This document shows positions 13,789-24,722 of a DNA stretch of 50,980 nucleotides, one piece after another; the first letter of the stretch is position 1, and each line of letters begins with the position of its first letter. The DNA comes from Candidatus Eiseniibacteriota bacterium (GTDB lineage Bacteria; Orphanbacterota; Orphanbacteria; Orphanbacterales; Orphanbacteraceae). The notes under the pieces were generated by a model, which saw nothing but the letters and a program-made list of their open reading frames with translations, was not told where the DNA came from and did no database searches. The translations under genes and the position numbers were made by a program. The stretch lies in contig JBDROZ010000036.1 in NCBI GenBank assembly GCA_043809585.1, positions 1 through 50,980 of the forward strand. The letters run 5' to 3'.

Positions 13789-13950
13789 ATGAAGCCCATG
13801 AAGCGTCTCATGCTGATCGCCCTTGTTCTCGGCGGCGTGCTCGTCGGCGCCTACCAGCTCCAGGCGGGCGACAAGCAGTCGTGCGCGCCGGGGAGCGAGT
13901 GCTGCCCGGAGCAGTGCGATCCCGCTGACTGCGGGACGAGCTGCAACTAG
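13789..13950 (+). CDS. Small secreted Cys-rich peptide (53 aa; not in ORF track)
   Basis: SD GGAAAGGA; MKPMKRLMLIALVLGGVLVGAYQLQA-GDKQSCAPGSECCPEQCDPADCGTSCN*; host-like codons; followed by a terminator. Confidence 0.75.
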   Translation: MKPMKRLMLIALVLGGVLVGAYQLQAGDKQSCAPGSECCPEQCDPADCGTSCN

Positions 13951-14025: not shown

Positions 14026-14991
14026 TCAGCGGATGAGCACGAGTTTCTCCGTCGCCCGGCGGAGGTCGGTACGAAGCACCGAGAAGTAGACGCCCGAGGG
14101 GAGAGGGTTCCCCCCGTCGTCCAGGCCGTTCCAGACGACCGATTTCCCGCCGCCCGTCTCCTCGCCGCTCACGAGGCTCCGCACGCGCCTCCCGCGAACA
14201 TCGTGGATGTCGATACTCACGTGGCCCCCGGGTCCGGGGATCTCGTACTCGATGGTCGTCAGCGGATTGAACGGGTTGGGCATCGCCCGGAGATCGAAGG
14301 CGACGGCCGGAAGCGCCGCGCCCACGCCCGTCGGCGTTCCGGGCCCGCCCATCTGGAAGCGGTCGGTTCCCGTCGTCGATCCGGCCAACCCGTCGAGCGG
14401 GCTTCCGGGGGCCCCCGTGAAGTCGATCCGGTAGGTGATGTCGAAGAAGCTGTCCACGGCGAAGTCCCCGCTCGGGAGTTCGGTGAGCGTCGTCACCCCG
14501 GGAGCGGGCAGACTGAAGTGCGTCCCCGTCAGGACCTGCAGGTAGTCGAAATCCGGATCGCCGAGAACCTCGCCGACCATGGCGAAGATCAGGGCCTCGA
14601 ATTCCTGCACCGGATCTCCCGGCACGCGGGGCGCCGTGTGAAACTCGACGATCACCGGAAGCGCGATCAAACGCTCGAAGCCCGTCAGGTCTCCGGTTCC
14701 CGTCATGACCAGGTGAAGGAGGGCGCCGCACTGCTGGATCTCCCCGTCCAGGAGACCACCGTCCCACCGGAGGATGTTGGCGAAGTCTCCGAGCCTCCCC
14801 TCGATGTCGATCGTCGTCCCCGGCGGCAGCCCGTCGAGGATCTGCATCGGCCCCTCGTACCCTCCCGGGCACTGGGGGGGGAGGTCGATGGTGCCGGTCC
14901 CGTTGTCGGGGAGGGCGCAGGGCAAGGCGAGGGTCGCGGGGACGATGAGAGCCGAGCCGAGAATGGCGGCGAGAAGCGTGCGAGTGAACAT
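14026..14991 (-). CDS. Secreted protein with C-terminal FlgD-Ig/T9SS-CTD-like domain
   Basis: Start MFTRTLLAAIL (SD GGGAG); C-terminal PNPFNPLTTIEY...VRGRRVRSLV...WNGLDDGG..LPSGVYF...KLVLIR. Confidence 0.85.
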   Translation of the reverse strand: MFTRTLLAAILGSALIVPATLALPCALPDNGTGTIDLPPQCPGGYEGPMQILDGLPPGTTIDIEGRLGDFANILRWDGGLLDGEIQQCGALLHLVMTGTGDLTGFERLIALPVIVEFHTAPRVPGDPVQEFEALIFAMVGEVLGDPDFDYLQVLTGTHFSLPAPGVTTLTELPSGDFAVDSFFDITYRIDFTGAPGSPLDGLAGSTTGTDRFQMGGPGTPTGVGAALPAVAFDLRAMPNPFNPLTTIEYEIPGPGGHVSIDIHDVRGRRVRSLVSGEETGGGKSVVWNGLDDGGNPLPSGVYFSVLRTDLRRATEKLVLIR

Positions 14992-15280
14992 CGTTTCGCT
15001 CCCATGTTCGGGTTGAACCGACGAAGCACGAACCGGGAAAGCGTTGCCGGCCACCCGTGCTGAGGCATAGAAAATACTCTAATACAGTCTCATTATACCA
15101 TGGCGAACGGCATGGGAGCCAATGGACCCGCGAAACTTGAATCTGTTCTGTGGCAACAAGTTACCGTATGAGCACCATCTTCGCCGCCGCCCGCCCCCGG
15201 TCGGTCCTGAGCAGGGAGAAATAGACCACTACGATCGTGTCTCAACCTCGATTCCATGAGACTGCCGCCACGGAAAGGTC

Positions 15281-18172
15281 TCACTCCGGCGGCAGCTGGG
15301 GCATCTTGATGCCGAACTTCTTCAGCTTGTAGCGGAGAAGCTGGCGTGAGATGCCGAGGATCTCCGCCGCCGTGCCGGGGCTGCCGCCGCTCTCCCGGAC
15401 CGCCTCCTTGATGCGGTCCTCCTCGAACTCGGCGACCGCCCGGAGGAGTCGATGCTGGGGGGGGCGGCGCTTGATTGCTCCGGACCGCACGACCCGCGAA
15501 AGATCGGCCGGCCCGATCGCCCGCCCGGCGGGCAGGAGCGCGATCGCCCGGCGGATCTCGTTCTGCAGCTCCCGCACGTTCCCCGGCCACGGGTGTCTCG
15601 CGAGAAGTCTCACCGCTTCCGGCGTGATGCCATCGACGGTCTTCCGCTCTTCTGCGGCGCACATCTTGACGAAGTGCTCGGCGAGGAGGGGAATGTCCCC
15701 CGGCCGGTCCCGTAGCGGGGGCACCTGGACGCGGATCACGTGCAGCCGGTAGAAGAGGTCGCCCCGGAACCGTCCCCGGTCGACTTCCGCCTCGAGGTCC
15801 CGGTGGGTTGCCGCCACGACGCGCACATCGATCTCCCGGTCCTCCGCCTCGCCGACCCGTTTCATTCGTCCTTCCTCGATCACCCGGAGGAGCCGGATCT
15901 GCACGGCGCTCGAGAAGTCGCCCACCTCGTCGAGGAAAAGCGTCCCCCCCCGGGCCCGTTCGAAAAGGCCTTCCTTGTCCGCCACGGCGCCGGTGAAGGA
16001 GCCGCGGGCGTGGCCGAAGAGTTCGCTTTCGAGGAGGGTCTCGGGGAACTCGGCGCAGTGGACGTGAACGAAGCGGCCCGCCCGGCCCCGGTCGCCCATC
16101 TCGTGGAGGAGCCTCGCGAGGAGGCCCTTGCCCGTCCCGGTCTCCCCCTCGATCAGCACCGTGGCGGGGGAGTTGCGGACCGAAGCGATCCGGTCGACCA
16201 GATCCTGCATGACCCGGCTCCCCGCGATGATGCGGGGGTGCGTTCGCGAAGAGGCCTCCGGCCTCACCGACGGGACCCTTCGGAGAAGCGCCTTCCCCCG
16301 GGCGGTGAACTCGCCCGCCTCCTTCTCGCTGAACGGGTCGGCGCCGATCCGCCGTTCCACATAGAGAAGGGATCCCTCCGCGTCGTCCGGGCGGAACGCG
16401 AGGTAAGGTCCGTGACATTCCTCCGGCCCGCCGGTGGTCCGCCCGGCGGAGACGATCAGGCGGCGGTCGTCCGTGTCTCGGAGGCGTTGGAAAACCGGTG
16501 CGGCCGACTCGGCGCCGGCGCCGACGAGGCGGTTCCCCTCGGGGGCGCCGGGAAGGTGAAGGAAGGCGATCTTCGCGCCGAGACGGCGCCCGAGGGCGCG
16601 CACCGACGGCTCGATCCCGCACTCCTCTTCGCCGAGGAGAACGGGGCCTTCCTTCTCGAGGGCGATTCGGGCGGTCTCCATCTCGAGATCGGCCCGAAGG
16701 CGCTCGATCTCTCGGAAAGCGACGACGGGATGAAAGGGGCGCAACCCGTCCTCCGCGTCCCGGAGGAGACGAAGGCACTCGTGGGGTGTGATCGTCCCCT
16801 GCAGGGCGCGCACCCCTTCGACGAGAAGAAACCCCCGGCGGCGGCCGAGGTCGAGGTCCCGGAAGATCGCGGCGGCTCTGTCGAAGTCCCGCAGGCTCCG
16901 GCGCCGCTCCTCCCGGGTGCGCCGGGGGGCCGCGGCCCTCTGCCTCGCACGCTCGGCAAAGGAGAGGGCGAGCTCGAAGCGGGCGCCCACATCTCCCAAT
17001 ATCCGAAGGCTCTTCTTCAGCGACGCCTCGGCGGATTGAATTCGCCCGCCGCTCGCGAACAAGAGCCGCGCCTTGACGCGATGGAGAATGCCCTCCTCCC
17101 GCCGGTCGCCGATCTTCTCGGCCAGACCGAGGGATGCCTCCAGTTCCCGCCGCGACTCCGCGAATTCCCCCCGCTCCAGATGCCACTCCGCCAGACGGCG
17201 GCCGATTTCGCAAACCACGTCCCCTTCCGGCGCGATCCGGAGCCCGATCTCCATTCCCTTCCTATAGAGGGTTCCCGCTTCCTTCCCGTCCCCCGCCGCC
17301 CGGTCCAGATCGCCGAGAAACTCGTACCCCAGCGCCTCCTCCCGCGGGAACCCGACCTCCACCGCCATCTCCAGACCCTTCCGGAGGTGCTTCCGCGCGC
17401 TCGTGAAATCCTCGAGGAAGAGATACGTCCGGCCGAGGGAGAGGTGGGAGGTAATTACAGTTCGTTGACGATGGGACCTATTCGCCCGTTTGAAGGCCTC
17501 TTTGAACCGGACAAGTGAACTCTGAAACTCACCAAGCCAAAAGGCAATATGTCCACTTCCCTGGTACCAATCGGCGACACTAGACAAGTTCTCTGCAACA
17601 CCCACCCGAATCGCCTTATCAACAGATACCATTGCAGAGGCAAGATCTCCGCGATTCTTGTGTGCCAGAGAAAGATTGTGGAGTGAGTGGCCTTCGGCCC
17701 ATTTGTCTCCGAAGTGACTTGCGAAAGCTGCAACTTGGCTGCATACCTCCTTGGCTCGCTCGTAGTCCCCGAATCTCAGCAGCAAGCTCTGGTATGTCAC
17801 CATAGGCGGGAGGGCTTCACGCGAGACAGATTGGCAGCTCCTTTTAAGAACCAGGTCAACGTAGGAGAGAGCGATTTCATAATTCCCAAGACGATGGTGG
17901 ACCCTGGCTAACAGATGAGCGGCTGAGAAGAGATGAGCATTAGGCAGATTCGGAGACTCTAAGTCAAGACCCGCAACCTCGTCGAGAGCAGACTGATACT
18001 CACCAAGGATGGCATAGCACCATCCTGAGAGAATCTGAGACTCCATAGTGGGTGAGGCATCGGTAGTCGGAAGTGTCTCAAGGAGACCACGGATCTCCAA
18101 GGAGGACCTGGCGCTTTCCGGCGCAAGAGGCTGACGGCTCAGCTCTCGAATTCTGCTCCAGGTATCCGACAT
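15281..18172 (-). CDS. Sigma54-dependent transcriptional activator (bEBP) with N-terminal TPR region and C-terminal Fis-type HTH
   Basis: Walker A GETGTGK, ESELFGHARGSFTGA, LFLDEVG, FRGDLFYRL, WPGNVREL and AAEILGISR. About 500 aa of TPR-like helical repeats at the N-terminus, with no REC domain. Confidence 0.92.
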   Translation of the reverse strand: MSDTWSRIRELSRQPLAPESARSSLEIRGLLETLPTTDASPTMESQILSGWCYAILGEYQSALDEVAGLDLESPNLPNAHLFSAAHLLARVHHRLGNYEIALSYVDLVLKRSCQSVSREALPPMVTYQSLLLRFGDYERAKEVCSQVAAFASHFGDKWAEGHSLHNLSLAHKNRGDLASAMVSVDKAIRVGVAENLSSVADWYQGSGHIAFWLGEFQSSLVRFKEAFKRANRSHRQRTVITSHLSLGRTYLFLEDFTSARKHLRKGLEMAVEVGFPREEALGYEFLGDLDRAAGDGKEAGTLYRKGMEIGLRIAPEGDVVCEIGRRLAEWHLERGEFAESRRELEASLGLAEKIGDRREEGILHRVKARLLFASGGRIQSAEASLKKSLRILGDVGARFELALSFAERARQRAAAPRRTREERRRSLRDFDRAAAIFRDLDLGRRRGFLLVEGVRALQGTITPHECLRLLRDAEDGLRPFHPVVAFREIERLRADLEMETARIALEKEGPVLLGEEECGIEPSVRALGRRLGAKIAFLHLPGAPEGNRLVGAGAESAAPVFQRLRDTDDRRLIVSAGRTTGGPEECHGPYLAFRPDDAEGSLLYVERRIGADPFSEKEAGEFTARGKALLRRVPSVRPEASSRTHPRIIAGSRVMQDLVDRIASVRNSPATVLIEGETGTGKGLLARLLHEMGDRGRAGRFVHVHCAEFPETLLESELFGHARGSFTGAVADKEGLFERARGGTLFLDEVGDFSSAVQIRLLRVIEEGRMKRVGEAEDREIDVRVVAATHRDLEAEVDRGRFRGDLFYRLHVIRVQVPPLRDRPGDIPLLAEHFVKMCAAEERKTVDGITPEAVRLLARHPWPGNVRELQNEIRRAIALLPAGRAIGPADLSRVVRSGAIKRRPPQHRLLRAVAEFEEDRIKEAVRESGGSPGTAAEILGISRQLLRYKLKKFGIKMPQLPPE

Positions 18173-18190
18173 CGCATTCCTTGTAATGTC

Positions 18191-18463
18191 CTACAAGAAC
18201 AACTGCGTCTTGAAGAGGACATCGATAACAAGTCGGAGGCTGGTTAGGAGTTCGGGTTGCCCAAACGTGTGTCCTCCGCCTTCAATATCGCCAGGAGTAT
18301 CCGGATCCCCATCAATCGGCTTTTCCTGTGCATCCTGCGCCGGCAGGAACCGGTCATACCCGTGCGCGACGGAGGGCAAGAAGATACCGACACCGAAAGT
18401 GAGGATCAGGAAGATCGAAACGATCGCGGAGACGGAACGATTGAGATTACCGATCGGGGCCAC
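18191..18463 (-). CDS. Small secreted peptide/protein (90 aa) upstream of the TPR-bEBP
   Basis: Strong SD AAGGAAGGAG before GTG; signal peptide ending VAHG; acidic GDPDTPGD core; hydrophobic C-terminal tail. Stops 18 nt before the bEBP ATG. Confidence 0.7.
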   Translation of the reverse strand: MAPIGNLNRSVSAIVSIFLILTFGVGIFLPSVAHGYDRFLPAQDAQEKPIDGDPDTPGDIEGGGHTFGQPELLTSLRLVIDVLFKTQLFL

Positions 18464-19143
18464 GGTACTACTCCTTCCTTGCGAGTGGAGAGGGAAAATC
18501 TTTTTCCCCTACAACGATTGACTGCTTACGTAGTTACCGTAGCAGCAACCGCACCACCCTGCAAGAAAACCGCGACTTCAGCCCCCGAATCCACGGGTGC
18601 TCCGAAATGGGAAAAGCAGCCGGAAAACGAACGAAAACGGACACTTCCGGCCCCGAAAGTCCACGGACTCCGGGCATCCGTGCCGATGCGGAATCGGCCG
18701 GAGCGCCGTGATTCCAAGGGGTTAAGAAATCTCGCCCGGGGAGGACCCTTGGAGCCGTTCCATTCCGGGATAAAGAAACCCCCCGAGGTCCCGAGGGCCG
18801 GGGAAAAATCTTTCCCGCGCCAACGTCCGGCGACCCCTGAGTTTCGGTCCCGCTCTTGGATTCTACCGACCAGCTCCGGCAGGAGAGAACCGGCGATGCA
18901 TCGAGCCCAAAACACCAATCATCGCGCACGCCGGTCCTTCCGATCCGCAACGAAATCCTATCACGCAACCTCATGAAATGTCAACCGATGATGACCATGC
19001 TGTGAAGGTCGTGTACAGAGAAGAGAAGAAACCGGCCCCGATCCCCCGGCTCCCGCCCGCCGAATTCAGGGCCGCAGTTTCTGCAAGATCGAGGCTCGAG
19101 ACCGTAGGAACCTGGTTCCCTTTTCTTGCCCGGCGCGGATTTC

Positions 19144-19326: not shown

Positions 19327-19464
19327 TTTCGAGCCGGCGCGCCAACTTACGTCCGCCCGCCATCGCCGGCCGCACCGCGCCCGTTCATCCCCCGGCCGGC
19401 AGAGTTCATTCTTTCGATGTGTTTCCCGTCTGGGAGCGCCCTCGCACGAAATGGAGGAACAGCC

Positions 19465-21189
19465 ATGAACCACCGCGAGATCCCGATTCTGATTTCGCTC
19501 ATCCTGCTCCTCGCCGCCGGGGCGGGCGCGAACCCGCTGCCCGAACCGGTCCCGACCTGGTACGCCATGCCCCCTTTCGCGGCGCCGGGGGAACCGATCG
19601 CCCTCGCGCTCTGGAACACCACATTCGAGACGATCGAAGTCCCGAATACGGCGCCGTGGCGCATCCTGGATCCGGACAGCAACATCGTCGCGAGTCCGGG
19701 GTTCTCCTTCCCGATGATCGTTCCCGTCCCCCCGGGGGGCTTTCTCACGTGGGGATGGAACGCCTACGGCGACGACGGCGAACCGATCGATCCGGGCGAC
19801 TACGACGCGATGGTGCCGTGGCACTACGACTACGACACGGTCTGGCATGATCTGAGAACGCCGGTCCGCATCATCGGCCACCCGGCGTGGAACACCGAGC
19901 CGGTGATCATCTTCCAGAGCGATCCGGCCGATCTCTACTTCCGGAATCTGTCGGACCAGGAGTACACCTTCCCCGTCACCTCACCCTGGAGAATCACGGA
20001 TCTCTCCGGAACGGGCGTCTATTGGCCCGTTTCTCTACCCATGCCGGATACCGTCCTTCCCGGAGAATGGCGGCATTGGTCGATGGACCCGGAGTTCGTC
20101 TGGCCTTCTCCCGGGACCTACGTCGGGGTGATCGAGTTTACCGACGAGGGCTTCGAGCATGTGGAGAAACACGACCCCTTCGCCGTGGTCGACAGCGTGG
20201 AGGGGGGCGTCGTCTGGATGGTGGAGCCCCTCGTGAACGGCACGAGGAGCGCCGTCACCCTGACCCTGACCAACGCGACGGCGGACACCGTCTTCCTTCC
20301 CGACCTCGGCCCGTGGTGGATCGAACATGCGGACACCCTCGTCTACGCGCCGGCGTCGGTTCTGATGATCTGGCCCGTGCCGCCGGGCGGCTCCATGGCC
20401 TGGTCGTGGGACGAGAAGGACTACCTCGAGAACTGGGTCGACGCCGGGGTCTACCGGGCTTCGGTCACGTACTCCCCCACCCGGGACCCCTGGGACGGAA
20501 TCCGGATGGACTTCGACTTCACCCTCGTCGACGTCGATCCCTCAGGTCCCTGCCTCTTCCTCGACCCGGAGCAACCCTCCTACTGCCAGGGCCAGACCGT
20601 GCGGTGGACATTCACGAACTGCGCCCCCGATACGATCGGCATGCTCGGACAGCACACGTGGTGGGTGACGGACCAGTACGGAACCCCCGTGTACATTCCG
20701 ATCGTGCTCTGGGCCCTCGACCGTTTCGCCCCCATGGAGACGGAGACCTTCGCCTGGGATCAGATCGACCTAAGCGGCGACTTGGTGGAGCCGGGGACGT
20801 ACTACGGGTGGGCGACGTTCACGGACAAGCTCTATCTCACGAGGCACACGGTCGTCTCGCCTCCGGTCACCATCGAGCCGTGCACCGGCGTGGAAGAGGG
20901 GCCGCCGCCCTTCCGGACGGTCTCGAGCTACCCGAACCCGTTCAATCCTTCGACGACAATCCGATTCGTCACGGCCGAGACCGGACCGGTGCGGCTCACG
21001 CTTGTCGATCCGGCCGGGCGCCACGTGCGCACCCTGGTGGACGCCGTTCTTCCTTCCCGTCCGGAGGGGCACGAGGCGGCCTGGGACGGGCGGGACAACG
21101 CCGGGCGCCCGGCGCCGAGCGGGATCTACTTCTACCGCCTCGAGGCCGCGGGGGAAACGCACACCGGAAAGTTGACCCTGATCCGCTAG
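19465..21189 (+). CDS. Secreted protein with four tandem Ig-like repeats and C-terminal FlgD-Ig/CTD domain
   Basis: SD GGAGG; signal peptide; 4 repeats of N....I......W.I.D..G..VY.P......PG....W.W...D..G..V.PG.Y; C-terminal YPNPFNPSTTIRF...WDGRD..G.PAPSGIYFYRL. Confidence 0.85.
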   Translation: MNHREIPILISLILLLAAGAGANPLPEPVPTWYAMPPFAAPGEPIALALWNTTFETIEVPNTAPWRILDPDSNIVASPGFSFPMIVPVPPGGFLTWGWNAYGDDGEPIDPGDYDAMVPWHYDYDTVWHDLRTPVRIIGHPAWNTEPVIIFQSDPADLYFRNLSDQEYTFPVTSPWRITDLSGTGVYWPVSLPMPDTVLPGEWRHWSMDPEFVWPSPGTYVGVIEFTDEGFEHVEKHDPFAVVDSVEGGVVWMVEPLVNGTRSAVTLTLTNATADTVFLPDLGPWWIEHADTLVYAPASVLMIWPVPPGGSMAWSWDEKDYLENWVDAGVYRASVTYSPTRDPWDGIRMDFDFTLVDVDPSGPCLFLDPEQPSYCQGQTVRWTFTNCAPDTIGMLGQHTWWVTDQYGTPVYIPIVLWALDRFAPMETETFAWDQIDLSGDLVEPGTYYGWATFTDKLYLTRHTVVSPPVTIEPCTGVEEGPPPFRTVSSYPNPFNPSTTIRFVTAETGPVRLTLVDPAGRHVRTLVDAVLPSRPEGHEAAWDGRDNAGRPAPSGIYFYRLEAAGETHTGKLTLIR

Positions 21190-21368: not shown

Positions 21369-24300
21369 GTGCCACGGGCCGTCATCCCGATCATCCCGGC
21401 GAAACTCACTACGCCCCCCGTACCGGCCTCGTGCGTCCCCCGTCCCCGCCTCGACCGCCTTCGGGAGGGTTGGACGGGGCGCCGGTTGGTCCTCGTCACC
21501 GCGGGCGCCGGGTTCGGAAAGACCACCTTCCTCGCCGAACACGCCCGCGCCTCGGCCCGTCCCGTGGTCTGGTACACGCCGGACGAGATGGACGCCGGCG
21601 TCGCCGCCTTCGGCGCCCATCTCTGCCACGGCCTCGGTTGCGGGGGAAGGGGCCGGGAGGCCTCGGTGGACGGGAGGGACCCGGACCAGCTCCTTGCCCG
21701 CCTCGCCCGCGCCCTCCGGGAGGCCGAATCGGATGTGACCCTCGTGATCGACGACTTCCATCTCGTCGCCGGCGCGCCGGGGATCGACCGGTTCGTGGAG
21801 TGGCTGGCCCGCTACTTCCCCCCCGGGGGCACGCTCATCCTCTCCTCGAGAGAGGCGCCCACCATCTCCACGATGAAGTTGCGCTCCCTCGGCCAGGTGG
21901 CGGAAGTGGGCGCTTCGGACCTCCGCTTCACCGAAGAGGAGACCGCCGCGCTCTTCCGCCGGCGCTTCGACGGCGCCGAGATCGACCTCGAACTTTGCCG
22001 GCGAGTGACGGCGCGCACCGAAGGATGGGCCGCCGGCCTCGCCATCTTCTTCCAGGTCCTCGACTCGCCGGCGCCCCACCGGGTGGAGGAAGCCCTCTCG
22101 TCGATGAGCGCCGCCGGTTCCGGCTGGTTCTCCTATTTCACCGAAGAGGTCCTCCGGAGGCTCGACGATGAAACCCGGGAATTCCTCCTCGGCACTTCCC
22201 TTCTCCCCCGGCTCGAGCCCGCCCTCTGCGACCGGGTGCTCGGAATCGACGGGAGCGGGAAGGTTCTGGAGCGCCTCGCATCCCGGAATCTCTTCACCTT
22301 CAGGTCCGAGGGAGGGGGAAACGCCTACCGATACCATCACCTCTTCCGGGAGTTTCTCCGGGACCGGCTCGAACGGTCATGGGACGGGGCGGCAATCGGC
22401 CGGCGGCTGAAACTCGCGGCCACCGCCCTCGAAGAGAACGGGGCTTTCGCCGAGGCGGTTGTGGCGTGGGCCGAGGCGGGCCGGAACGACCAGGCCCTCC
22501 GGCTCGTGGAGAAGCTCGGGGAGGACCTCCTCGCCGCCGGCCGGTTCGAGGTGATCCGCCGCGCCCTGGAGCGCATGCCCCCCGGACTCCTCGACGAACA
22601 CCCGGCGGCGCTCCTCGTGCTCGGCCGGGCGACGGAGATTCCGGGGCGGGGCGAGGAAGCGGAGAAGATCTACCGCCGGGCCCTCCGGCGCGCCGACGCG
22701 GGCCCTCTCCGGATCGAGCTGATGGCGCTCATCGCGCAGAACCTCCAACGCCGGGGGGAGCACCGGAAGTGCACGACCCTCTGCCAAAAAGCCCTCGGCG
22801 AACCGCGTCCCATCCCGGCGCGCACCCGGGGACGGCTGCTCAACATGCTCGGCATATCGGCCTGCGAACTCGGCCGCCTCGACGAAGCGGAAGCGTATCT
22901 CGAAGAAGCCACGCTGCTTCTCCGGCGGAGCGGCGAACGGGACATCCCCACCTTCTATCTGCTGCCGGGGAACATCCACTACCGGCGCGGCGATTTCCAG
23001 AGGGCGAAGGAGGCCGCGCGCCGGGCGCTCCTCGAGTTCAAGAAAAGGAAGGACCGCCGCCGCTTCTGCCACAGCCTCGGAGTGCTCGCCCATGTGACCG
23101 CCGAGGCGTGCGAGGTTCGGGAGGCTCGGGCCCTCGCCGGGGAAGTGCTGCGCCTCGCGGAGGCCCTCGACTATCCCCTGATGCAGGGCTACGGCCACAT
23201 GGCCCTCGGCCGCTGTCTCCGCGTCGAGGGCGATCTCCGGGGGGCGCGGGAGTGTTTCGAGGCGGCCCAGGGGATCGGCGAACGCGTGGGTGAGACGGGA
23301 CTCCGAACGATCCCCGCGAACCGGCTCGCCGATATCGCCCTCCGGGAGGGCAACCGGCCGCGGGCCGCCCGCCTCGCCGGGCTCGCCCTGGAAGAGGCGG
23401 TCGCCGCCGGAGAGATTTACGAAGAGGTGGAGAGTTGCCTGCTCCTCGGAGACCTCCGGGCCCGGACGAGACCGGCCGAAGGGGAGAGATGGCGGGCCCG
23501 GGCGGAGAAGATCATCCGGCGCGTCGGAATGAACTTCGAGCTTCACCGCCTCCTCCTCGGCCGCCTCGATTCCGGCAGACTCTCCGACGACGAAGCCCGG
23601 GCCGCCCTCGAGGAACTCCTCACGGGCGCCGCAGCCCTCGGCCACGACTTCCTCTTCCTCTCCCTCGAGCAGGAACGATCCATTCCCGTGCTCGCCCGGG
23701 CCGTCCGAGAGGGGGTGGAGCCCGAATACGCCTCCCGACTTCTCGGGGCGATCGGAGAACCCGCGGTCCCCTCCCTCACGCCCCTCGCGACGCACGCGGA
23801 TGAAGAGACGAGGACCAGGACGATTCACCTCCTCACCCGGATCGGGGGAAACGAGGCGTGGCGGGTTCTCGCCCGCGCGGCGGAAGGGGGTTCCTCGGAC
23901 GCTCGGGAGGCGCGGGCGGCGATGGAGGAGATCGGGGCCACCCCCCGCTCCCCCCTCCGGATCTACGCACTCGGCCCCCTCCGCGTCGAAGGGGGGGGGC
24001 GGTGTCTCGAATTGGGCGACTGGAAATCGGCCCGCGCCCTCCGGCTCTTCCAGCTCCTTCTCGTACACCGCTTCCGGTGGGTCCCCCGGGACCAATTGAT
24101 CGAGACGCTCTGGCCGGACGGCGACCCGGCGAAGGGGACCAACAACTTCCGCCAGACGATCCACTTGCTCCGCCGCGTCCTCCGCTCCGGCGGGGAAGAC
24201 GCGAAGAGTTCCCCGTACATTCTCGTGCACAACGAATCGTGCCGCCTCGAAGCGGGCGAAGGGGCCCGCTACGACGTGGCCGAGTTCGAAGAGACGATCC

Positions 24301-24722
24301 GGCTCGCCGAGGAATCGCGGCGATCCTCGGTGCCGGAAGAGGCGAACCGGCTCCTCCGGCGGGCGATCGAGATCTACCGGGGTCCCTTCCTCGCCGAATC
24401 CCCGTACGAGGAATTCGCCGCCGACGACCGGGAGCGCCTGCGGGATCTCTTCCTCCGCGGTCTCGAACGCCTCGTCTCCACGTTGTTCGAGGAAACCCGA
24501 TGGGAGGAAGCCGCGGCCTATGCGAGGAGGGGTCTCGCCGAAGACCCGTACGAGGAGGAGTTCCACTTCCACCTCGCGGCGGCCCACGAGCGGCTCGGCC
24601 ACAAGCAGGAAGCCCTCGCGGCGTATCACCGTTATGAGGAGATGATGATTCGGGAGCTCGACCTGCTCCCCTCGGAACGGATGAAGAAACTGGCCGACCG
24701 GATCGTTCGTCTGGGGGGATAG
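21369..24722 (+). CDS. MalT-like STAND ATPase transcriptional regulator with TPR region and C-terminal OmpR-wHTH/BTAD (SARP) domain
   Basis: AKLTTP...PRPRL, Walker A AGAGFGKTT, VIDDFH, TEGWAAGL, YRYHHLFREFL; then IYALGPLRV, LIETLWP, YRGPFL, DPYEE and ELDLLPS. Confidence 0.88.
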   Translation: MPRAVIPIIPAKLTTPPVPASCVPRPRLDRLREGWTGRRLVLVTAGAGFGKTTFLAEHARASARPVVWYTPDEMDAGVAAFGAHLCHGLGCGGRGREASVDGRDPDQLLARLARALREAESDVTLVIDDFHLVAGAPGIDRFVEWLARYFPPGGTLILSSREAPTISTMKLRSLGQVAEVGASDLRFTEEETAALFRRRFDGAEIDLELCRRVTARTEGWAAGLAIFFQVLDSPAPHRVEEALSSMSAAGSGWFSYFTEEVLRRLDDETREFLLGTSLLPRLEPALCDRVLGIDGSGKVLERLASRNLFTFRSEGGGNAYRYHHLFREFLRDRLERSWDGAAIGRRLKLAATALEENGAFAEAVVAWAEAGRNDQALRLVEKLGEDLLAAGRFEVIRRALERMPPGLLDEHPAALLVLGRATEIPGRGEEAEKIYRRALRRADAGPLRIELMALIAQNLQRRGEHRKCTTLCQKALGEPRPIPARTRGRLLNMLGISACELGRLDEAEAYLEEATLLLRRSGERDIPTFYLLPGNIHYRRGDFQRAKEAARRALLEFKKRKDRRRFCHSLGVLAHVTAEACEVREARALAGEVLRLAEALDYPLMQGYGHMALGRCLRVEGDLRGARECFEAAQGIGERVGETGLRTIPANRLADIALREGNRPRAARLAGLALEEAVAAGEIYEEVESCLLLGDLRARTRPAEGERWRARAEKIIRRVGMNFELHRLLLGRLDSGRLSDDEARAALEELLTGAAALGHDFLFLSLEQERSIPVLARAVREGVEPEYASRLLGAIGEPAVPSLTPLATHADEETRTRTIHLLTRIGGNEAWRVLARAAEGGSSDAREARAAMEEIGATPRSPLRIYALGPLRVEGGGRCLELGDWKSARALRLFQLLLVHRFRWVPRDQLIETLWPDGDPAKGTNNFRQTIHLLRRVLRSGGEDAKSSPYILVHNESCRLEAGEGARYDVAEFEETIRLAEESRRSSVPEEANRLLRRAIEIYRGPFLAESPYEEFAADDRERLRDLFLRGLERLVSTLFEETRWEEAAAYARRGLAEDPYEEEFHFHLAAAHERLGHKQEALAAYHRYEEMMIRELDLLPSERMKKLADRIVRLGG

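Follow-up and report, generated by a model that had tools for sequence, protein, structure and literature searches.

Positions 1 to 50,980 of contig JBDROZ010000036.1 (GenBank assembly GCA_043809585.1), from a genome assigned to Candidatus Eiseniibacteriota, carry two adjacent genes on the minus strand: a small open reading frame (ORF) for a predicted exported mini-protein and, directly downstream, a gene for a sigma-54 enhancer-binding protein with an extended N-terminal region of tetratricopeptide repeats (TPRs). This whole stretch of 50,980 nucleotides (nt) is referred to below as the window. Here, we describe the two genes, present strong evidence that their association is the rule among relatives of the activator, and weigh the ways in which the mini-protein might be linked to the activator.

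The small ORF (18191-18463, stop codon included; 90 amino acids (aa)) was read from the sequence. It starts with GTG, 7 nt behind a Shine-Dalgarno sequence, AAGGAG (18471-18476), of which GGAG is kept in all five loci of the orthologous group, hereafter group A. The precursor opens with a predicted signal peptide (residues 1-35; 18359-18463) that consists of a short positive N-region with one Arg, a 20-residue hydrophobic run (mean hydrophobicity of the h-region, 0.88; hydrophobic moment, 0.14) and the sequence PSVAHG, with cleavage predicted between AHG and the Y that begins YDRFLP; signal peptides and cleavage sites were assigned by rule and by eye. Cleavage would leave a mature part of ~55 aa in the window (45-85 aa across the family), which contains an acidic core, DGDPDTPGD (residues 51-59; 18287-18313), and, by computation of hydrophobicity and hydrophobic moment, a C-terminal amphipathic helix (residues 72-90; 18194-18250), these last 19 residues being hydrophobic and amphipathic and interrupted by charges. 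An initial annotation, made from the sequence alone, had described this ORF with its ribosome-binding site, Sec-type signal, GDPDTPGD core, hydrophobic tail and 18-nt distance from the activator, and all of these were found. No Pfam or NCBIfam model matches the mini-protein.

The activator gene (15281-18172, stop codon included) starts with ATG, 18 nt behind the stop codon of the small ORF, and encodes 963 aa, whose domains were delineated with Pfam, NCBIfam and AlphaFold2. The C-terminal part comprises an AAA+ sigma-54 interaction domain with its lid (residues 648-902; 15467-16231), including the Walker A motif GETGTGK and the motif GSFTGA (Sigma54_activat, PF00158, at 648-815, 210 bits against a cut-off of 20.2; AAA_lid_14, PF25601, at 821-902, 78.5 bits), and a Fis-type helix-turn-helix (HTH) domain (residues 913-953; 15314-15436; HTH_8, PF02954, 35.6 bits against a cut-off of 22). 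Pfam finds neither a REC nor a PAS domain and thus agrees with the initial annotation, which also considered the AAA+ core and the HTH intact. In NCBIfam, the AAA+/HTH part alone matches named activators, always far below the equivalog cut-offs, and a Foldseek search with the model of the whole protein retrieves the AAA+ domains of ZraR, NtrC1, FleQ and LuxO (E ~1e-20). No membrane segment is predicted in the activator.

The input region had been characterized as about 500 aa of TPR-like repeats. This holds for residues 43-456 (16805-18046), a solenoid of 21 paired helices, corresponding to ~10-11 repeats and matched over residues ~44-400 by the Pfam models TPR_12 (77.7 bits against a cut-off of 30.1), TPR_2, TPR_8 and TPR_10, but it does not hold for the input region as a whole. 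Beyond a coiled helical linker (463-506), the AlphaFold2 model contains an alpha/beta domain (520-632; 16277-16615), overlooked in the initial annotation, in which a helix, five strands and another helix follow each other; it has no Pfam match and looks GAF/PAS-like solely by the order of these elements, the fold class not being confirmed. The model of the whole activator, built with an alignment of 38 relatives, has a mean pLDDT of 87.2 and a pTM of 0.70, and residues 1-510 modelled alone reach 94.4 and 0.91, respectively.

The public annotation is corrected in two respects. The public gene call for the activator (P0038) is just 695 aa long, starting near M269 and omitting the first 268 residues of the sensor, and the mini-protein family is unnamed in the libraries searched. 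Orthologues align with the activator from residue 1, and complete relatives span 836-984 aa (L032, 966; L035, 979; L039, 864; L045, 952; L047, 836; L059, 984; L077, 976; L073, also 836, is the same locus as L047, and the remaining relatives run off their loci). The omitted residues are exactly the low-GC part of the protein: GC content drops from ~0.70 to 0.52-0.56 across the small ORF and ~280 codons at the start of the activator gene (17350-18550). Since all five group A orthologues (L032 and L033-L036) show this dip, which is weaker or absent in groups B-D, it is old and lineage-specific, and recent horizontal transfer as the origin of the low-GC 5' part was rejected.

Linkage and duplication of the pair

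All 10 genomes of the phylum, which appears as Candidatus Eisenbacteria in database records, were searched with the TPR region, and each contains TPR-activator matches, at 33 places that amount to 30 loci. A mini-protein ORF is located upstream, on the same strand, at 28 of these 30 loci, 27 of which were recognized by script and one, L049, by hand, the ORF in this case lying 61 nt upstream of the activator on the strand opposite to the script's choice. Both exceptions are cut by contig ends: at L032, the contig starts inside the small ORF, with DGDPDLP and the tail still visible, and at L053, the contig ends after 58 nt of upstream sequence. None of the 30 loci has upstream sequence and lacks the ORF, so the pairing is far beyond chance. 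At the 27 loci found by script, the ORFs encode 70-114 aa (seven exceed 100 aa); each product has a strongly hydrophobic segment at its N-terminus, contains a D-x-D motif and ends in a hydrophobic tail. The intergenic gap at these loci ranges from -4 to 162 nt, with a median of 47.

The pairing was also found outside these genomes. Among metagenome contigs searched with the group A TPR alignment, all five confirmed loci have the ORF, with the motif [DE]GDPDxP and gaps of -17 to 29 nt; the proposal that a signal-peptide ORF with a GDPD-like motif consistently precedes homologous activators is thus borne out in both data sets. Among species-representative genomes, the same query reaches two Krumholzibacteriia metagenome-assembled genomes (MAGs), where a signal-peptide ORF lies 18-42 nt upstream at all four TPR-activator loci having upstream sequence; these ORFs contain looser acidic Pro motifs (GEDPHL, GDDPGL and VDPGGL), and two of the four have a hydrophobic tail. 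The window mini-protein has no sequence-detectable paralogue in its own genome, and its weak matches in five genomes of the same family are all directly upstream of activator orthologues. Because the genes around the group A orthologues are not shared, the pair itself is the conserved unit; by the same token, adjacency yields no target gene. Taken together, these observations strongly suggest that the pairing is the rule and that the two genes, which are probably co-transcribed, form a self-contained module, so far confined to Eisenbacteria and Krumholzibacteriia.

The retention of frame, length class, signal peptide, core motif and tail everywhere indicates that the small ORF is coding. Small residues at -3/-1 behind the hydrophobic core and a positive N-region occur in 27 of the 27 aligned members. 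Given this conservation of signal peptide and cleavage site, the product of the first gene is probably exported and its mature part belongs outside the cytoplasm, where the short positive N-region would likewise place the remainder of the chain. Over the last 18 residues, the 27 members show a median Eisenberg hydrophobicity of 0.41, a moment of 0.35 and two charged residues, compared with 0.78 and 0.07 for hydrophobicity and moment in the signal-peptide cores of the family, so the tail is amphipathic rather than a typical membrane anchor. A membrane-tethered anti-activator, raised as an alternative in the initial annotation, fits poorly with such a tail and with a signal peptide of the cleaved type. 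Nor do the tails resemble PEP-CTERM sorting signals, in which a transmembrane helix and a basic cluster come immediately after the motif, whereas the D-x-D core of the mini-protein ends 16 residues before a tail of modest hydrophobicity that carries charges and no terminal basic cluster.

A word-indexed search returned 33 proteins of the mini-protein family, all called hypothetical and all from Eisenbacteria-labelled MAGs except for one labelled Latescibacterota, and 52 clusters were found at E <= 0.001 among 1.84 billion representatives. An ESM Atlas feature query with the mini-protein gave no match; the structural look-alikes retrieved there with a low-confidence query model (pLDDT 0.54), PID-CTERM mini-proteins and arabinogalactan peptides, resemble it only in that a signal peptide, a linker and a hydrophobic tail follow one another.

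Most positions of the mini-protein are weakly constrained. In the alignment of the 27 members, D53 and D55 are the sole invariant columns, and P41 is conserved in at least 90%; the closest database relative, 63% identical, retains AHGYD..LP, DGDPDTPGDIEG and TSLRL..DVLFKT and varies in between. In 11 pairs analysed by the Nei-Gojobori method, the ratio of nonsynonymous to synonymous substitution rates (dN/dS) ranges over 0.43-1.21 in the small ORF, whereas their TPR regions give 0.10-0.36. Rapid evolution around an invariant core is the pattern seen in pro-peptides with a short active core.

The 4.24-Mb window genome encodes ~25 proteins with strong Sigma54_activat matches (E < 1e-57), of which four, on contigs C36 (the window), C32, C3 and C76, are of the TPR type. 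The mini-proteins fall into four motif classes: A, to which the window copy belongs, with DGDPDxP preceded by [YF]xxxLP; B, with GDGDIPE starting 1-2 residues past the predicted signal-peptidase site; C, with GGGDPDNPVP; and D, with VDPDGLEG. These classes were defined on the mini-proteins, whereas the maximum-likelihood tree (IQ-TREE, 29 rows) was built on the TPR regions of the activators; it contains four clades with support of 100/100, 100/100, 100/100 and 100/99. Clades and classes agree, with C (8/8) and D (5/5) as single branches and A and B as single branches when two contig-edge loci are counted in, and a separate branch comprises the two pairs that belong to the phylum's other class. 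The sequences thus show that the two genes were duplicated together, giving rise to at least four ancient lineages that differ in their peptide motifs. Co-phylogeny of the presumed receptor and peptide, as proposed in the initial annotation, is therefore upheld as a correspondence of motif classes with activator clades and not as co-evolution: the genes are adjacent, and duplication and retention as a unit suffice for the agreement.

Additional conserved genes accompany the pair in some groups. In group D, a third conserved gene, 180-350 nt upstream of the mini-protein gene, encodes a 60-67-aa single-pass membrane protein with a cytoplasmic tail and the motif ARFCAVNAGWEKIA after the helix (five of five loci: L055, L056, L058, L059 and L060; for example, on G000:C76). 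No third conserved gene was found in groups A and C. Three of the seven group B loci have a different small hydrophobic ORF, and at four group B loci from several genera (L037, L038, L044 and L049), the upstream gene encodes a protein that starts with M(N/T)EPWY..AFG..Y...YAHR(D/N)DEEAA, so that group B, unlike group A, may keep a conserved neighbour.

Promoter, candidate operators and neighbouring genes

A sigma-70-type promoter precedes the small ORF on the minus strand (18536-18564), with the -35 element TTGCAG (18559-18564), a 17-nt spacer and the extended -10 element TGC-TACGGT (18536-18544); the transcript is predicted to start near 18529. Its blocks are conserved in the alignment of five group A upstream regions, and the group C paralogues have a near-consensus TTGACA-N17-TAAAAT at the corresponding place. 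A sigma-54 promoter considered at 18541-18556 was rejected, as the alignment of orthologous upstream regions places it within this conserved sigma-70-type promoter. In the window, the sigma-54 consensus has one match with at most two mismatches, against 3.2 expected by chance; none of its 131 matches in the genome lies within 15 kb of the module, and nothing strong was found beside the rare inverted repeats, described next, elsewhere in the genome.

Two inverted repeats flank this promoter. The proximal one, GGGGAAAAAGATTTTCCC (18492-18509), is in the 5' leader and could be an operator or a leader hairpin; it occurs at the same place at all five group A loci. The distal one is A/T-rich, GGGGAAAAATCTTTCCC in plus-strand letters (18800-18816), and a similar element is found ~290-350 nt upstream of the small ORF at the four orthologous loci having upstream sequence. 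The pattern GGGAAA-N1-7-TTTCCC has four copies in the 4.24-Mb genome, two of them here, 308 bp apart. Both repeats are candidate operators, and they may serve the HTH domain of the activator itself.

The leader RNA (18455-18545) has a folding z-score of -2.92, and the junction RNA between the two genes, in which the activator start codon pairs with the 3' end of the small ORF, has a z-score of -2.34 in the window. Across 27 loci, the junction has a median z of -0.06, with one locus of 27 below -2 (mononucleotide shuffles), and a junction RNA switch as a family trait was rejected. No Rfam family matches anywhere in the window. The genome contains one rpoN (G000:C72, 213 bits) and two SBP_bac_5 (OppA-family) genes, which makes both a sigma-54 output and an import route possible. 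In one metatranscriptome run, two exact contigs fall within the activator gene (15654-15799 and 17825-18062), with DNA carry-over possible, and none on the small ORF; such contigs cannot show a transcript.

Group C differs in its upstream region. At L048, L050, L051 and L052, representing four genera, GG-N10-GC elements of the form GGAACG-N4-5-TGC are located ~155-170 nt before the small ORF and ~50 nt upstream of the sigma-70-type promoter, at matching positions; judged from sequence, they may serve this subgroup as a sigma-54 promoter. Conserved complementary blocks are also present in the group C leader.

In the window, the module is flanked by genes for secreted proteins ending in a FlgD_ig-type domain (14026-15054, minus strand, and 19417-21189, plus strand), which are not conserved beside orthologous modules. 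Within 3 kb, a second large TPR regulator is encoded on the plus strand (21369-24722): this 1117-aa SARP/STAND-type activator combines an AAA_22 NTPase, a MalT-like TPR region, HEAT repeats, Trans_reg_C and BTAD. A 53-aa ORF on the plus strand (13789-13950), with no Pfam match, encodes a signal peptide and a Cys-rich mature part (CAPGSECCPEQCDPADCGTSCN), and the group A activator in G005 has a homologue of this ORF ~2.7 kb downstream (L066, E 8e-7).

Explanations for the pairing

We favour direct recognition: having passed through the envelope, the mini-protein, or a fragment containing its acidic core, would serve as the cognate ligand for the TPR domain and control the activator; the probability of this reading as a whole is, in our estimate, approximately 40%. 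The two genes would be transcribed together from the sigma-70-type promoter, and the precursor would be exported through its Sec-type signal peptide, trimmed, and then either taken up again by a peptide importer or released from the membrane. The mini-protein or its acidic fragment would bind the basic groove of the TPR domain and thereby release, or impose, control on the assembly of the AAA+ ring, so that information from the envelope or the extracellular space would reach sigma-54 promoters. Re-import, the leading route, is by itself a more doubtful proposition; one point in its favour is the existence of OppA-family genes, which would permit import.

Several considerations argue for recognition by the TPR domain. 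Among known paradigms, only that of the RRNPP receptors fits the combination of an adjacent Sec-type pro-peptide and a cytoplasmic TPR regulator. In LGN/Pins, kinesin light chain and APPBP2, extended peptides, often acidic ones, are bound within the TPR solenoid, and the confidently predicted TPR model is nearest to such peptide-binding domains, degron-bound APPBP2 among them. The TPR columns invariant in all four paralogue groups include R277, R325 and R326 (K172 and R133 are present in at least 90% of the sequences), and these basic residues could pair with the invariant D53 and D55. Furthermore, the group B core begins at the mature N-terminus. A complex prediction for TPR residues 1-480 with mature residues 36-90 of the mini-protein (score, 0.01; mark, 0.32), run without controls, speaks neither for nor against binding.

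The comparison with RRNPP structures proposed in the initial annotation shows the TPR domain to be nearest to proteins other than RRNPP receptors. In the PDB, the foremost Foldseek matches of the TPR model are APC5, TONSOKU, LGN/Pins and degron-bound APPBP2 (TM-score normalised to the query, 0.63-0.69) and MalT domain III (0.74, normalised to the target); the matches listed, which extend to rank 50, include no RRNPP receptor. In a search of PDB sequences with the TPR profile, LGN comes first (1.8e-34), followed by OGT, kinesin light chains and AfsR (6e-18), and RapJ, an RRNPP member, appears with E 1.1e-14 at about rank 45 of 246; the Pfam AimR model scores 19.2 bits on the activator, under its cut-off of 26.7. 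Beyond this absence, further observations weigh against direct recognition. The mature part, with 45-85 aa and a conserved C-terminal helix, is unlike the 5-10-aa peptides of RRNPP systems, and the motifs are invariant across genera instead of being diversified into pherotypes. In a diderm host, the peptide would have to cross the outer membrane or stay within it. The module appears to have no autoinduction signature, given that its promoter is of the sigma-70 type and that no strong sigma-54 consensus is near it. The predicted alpha/beta domain at 520-632 could be the real sensor, and adjacent genes co-diverge regardless of contact, so the agreement of clades and motifs reflects stable linkage. 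Finally, binding, processing and import are postulated from sequence and a structural model.

The first of the rival explanations invokes contact before export instead of after it. The unexported precursor would bind the TPR domain in the cytoplasm and hold the activator off (or on), and Sec export would remove it, such that the activator would read export flux or precursor supply, a logic known from FlgM and from the TPR chaperone IpgC with MxiE. This dispenses with re-import and suits a cytoplasmic TPR domain, for which the conserved amphipathic helix at the extreme C-terminus of the precursor is a plausible ligand; the short gap between the genes and the junction pairing in the window would suit coupled translation in fixed proportion, and strict linkage with clade-specific motifs is expected of any model of direct binding. 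However, the junction structure is no family trait, four paralogous pairs reporting on a single Sec pathway would be redundant, and the most conserved element, the acidic core, is just behind the signal-peptidase site, pointing to a function after cleavage. We consider this explanation unlikely.

Improbable, too, is an arrangement with no contact between the two proteins, in which the mini-protein is a periplasmic or membrane-surface factor, possibly binding metal through its Asp-rich core, and is linked to the activator by a membrane transducer or only as a co-expressed accessory, while the TPR or the alpha/beta domain senses something else. The conservation of the signal peptide and cleavage site in all aligned members is compatible with it, as is the presence of a second input domain, and the 60-aa membrane protein at all group D loci could be the transducer. 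Groups A and C, however, lack a third conserved gene, group A lacks conserved neighbours altogether, and a private mini-protein for each activator clade, maintained at phylum depth, is hard to explain without specific recognition.

Least probable, and in our view very unlikely, is a regulatory leader, that is, a monitoring substrate like those of the export-monitoring arrest systems SecM, VemP and MifM, whose translation or export would set translation of the activator: the layout suits this idea (a signal peptide, a small ORF directly upstream, and RNA in the window in which the 3' end of the small ORF pairs with the activator start codon), but the C-terminal residues are variable and contain no conserved Pro/Gly arrest motif, the invariant residues are 35 residues before the C-terminus of the window protein and not at its end, the downstream gene encodes a transcription activator and not a Sec or YidC component, and junction folding is not unusual family-wide.

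Comparison with known systems

In both sequence profile and fold, the TPR domain has its best natural matches in LGN/Pins, kinesin light chain and APPBP2; these are eukaryotic scaffolds, and the resemblance is one of fold class, with no functional inference beyond peptide binding. The MalT/AfsR-type STAND regulators are, likewise, bacterial activators in which a TPR-like sensor is located beside an ATPase module, but this module is a STAND NTPase rather than a sigma-54 AAA+ domain, they have no partner mini-protein, and they act with sigma-70. In IpgC-MxiE, SicA-InvF and FlgM, secretion is coupled to transcription in diderms through binding of a secreted substrate before export, by a TPR protein in the chaperone systems. 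IpgC-MxiE and SicA-InvF differ in their use of type III secretion and a separate AraC-type activator, whereas in the module described here, the TPR domain is fused to the activator and the substrate has a Sec signal.

Sigma-54 activators are usually under the control of phosphorylation, small-molecule-binding domains or cytoplasmic anti-activators. The activator described here shares with NifA-NifL, NorR, DmpR/XylR and PspF-PspA the AAA+ core with a GAFTGA-type loop, the lid and the Fis HTH, in a genome that encodes rpoN, and its N-terminal input presumably gates ring assembly as well. It differs in that the input is a 410-residue TPR solenoid plus an alpha/beta domain and in that the constant partner is a predicted exported mini-protein instead of a cytoplasmic anti-activator. 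Searches of the available text of open-access papers and preprints brought up nothing relevant on TPR-type activators and no account of one that has an exported partner, in line with the initial annotation's view of the system as undescribed in this kind of lineage. The proteins make up a family of sigma-54 activators whose input module appears to be new and whose predicted exported partner is constant.

According to the RRNPP survey (PMC10075063), which was restricted to Firmicutes and viruses, the signature of these systems is a propeptide of 10-100 aa, secreted via Sec and matured extracellularly, and a receptor of 250-500 aa with TPRs, encoded by adjacent genes. The analogy with these switches drawn in the initial annotation stands for four of the five features (small propeptide, predicted Sec-type signal, TPR receptor and adjacency), as recognized by sequence, and fails for receptor length, 963 aa against 250-500, and for architecture. 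As in Rap-Phr, NprR-NprX, PlcR-PapR, PrgX and AimR-AimP, a cytoplasmic TPR protein acts as the regulator in its own right, a genome has several cognate pairs, and the pro-peptide evolves fast around a short conserved core. RRNPP receptors, however, have an HTH or phosphatase domain N-terminal to the TPRs, whereas in the module an N-terminal TPR domain, resembling LGN and kinesin light chain, is followed by the alpha/beta domain and by the output, an AAA+ sigma-54 activator whose Fis HTH is C-terminal. The gene for the pro-peptide lies 18 nt upstream on the same strand, the host belongs to a diderm candidate phylum, and homology is limited to generic TPR similarity, with RapJ far behind LGN in the profile search. 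On these sequence grounds, the module is not a member of RRNPP and at most works like one.

Peptide signalling through cytoplasmic TPR proteins is regarded as a trait of the Bacillota, as reflected in the scope of the survey (PMC10075063). The phylum studied here presents four private mini-protein/TPR-activator pairs per genome, strictly linked and with motifs that differ between clades. Should the mini-protein prove to be the ligand, sigma-54 regulation would gain a new class of input, and diderms would have invented genetically encoded peptide sensing independently; the motifs, being short and defined, are open to direct synthesis and testing. Tentatively, then, and with more doubt than attaches to recognition as such, up to four orthogonal channels of Sec-exported pro-peptides and TPR-sigma-54 receptors may operate in Eisenbacteria, with a looser version in Krumholzibacteriia, which would be the first communication by peptides with cytoplasmic receptors outside Bacillota and their mobile elements, independently arisen in a diderm and with an ATP-driven sigma-54 output. 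The genomic evidence for the pair is strong, and its mechanism would be RRNPP-like logic put together from unrelated parts.

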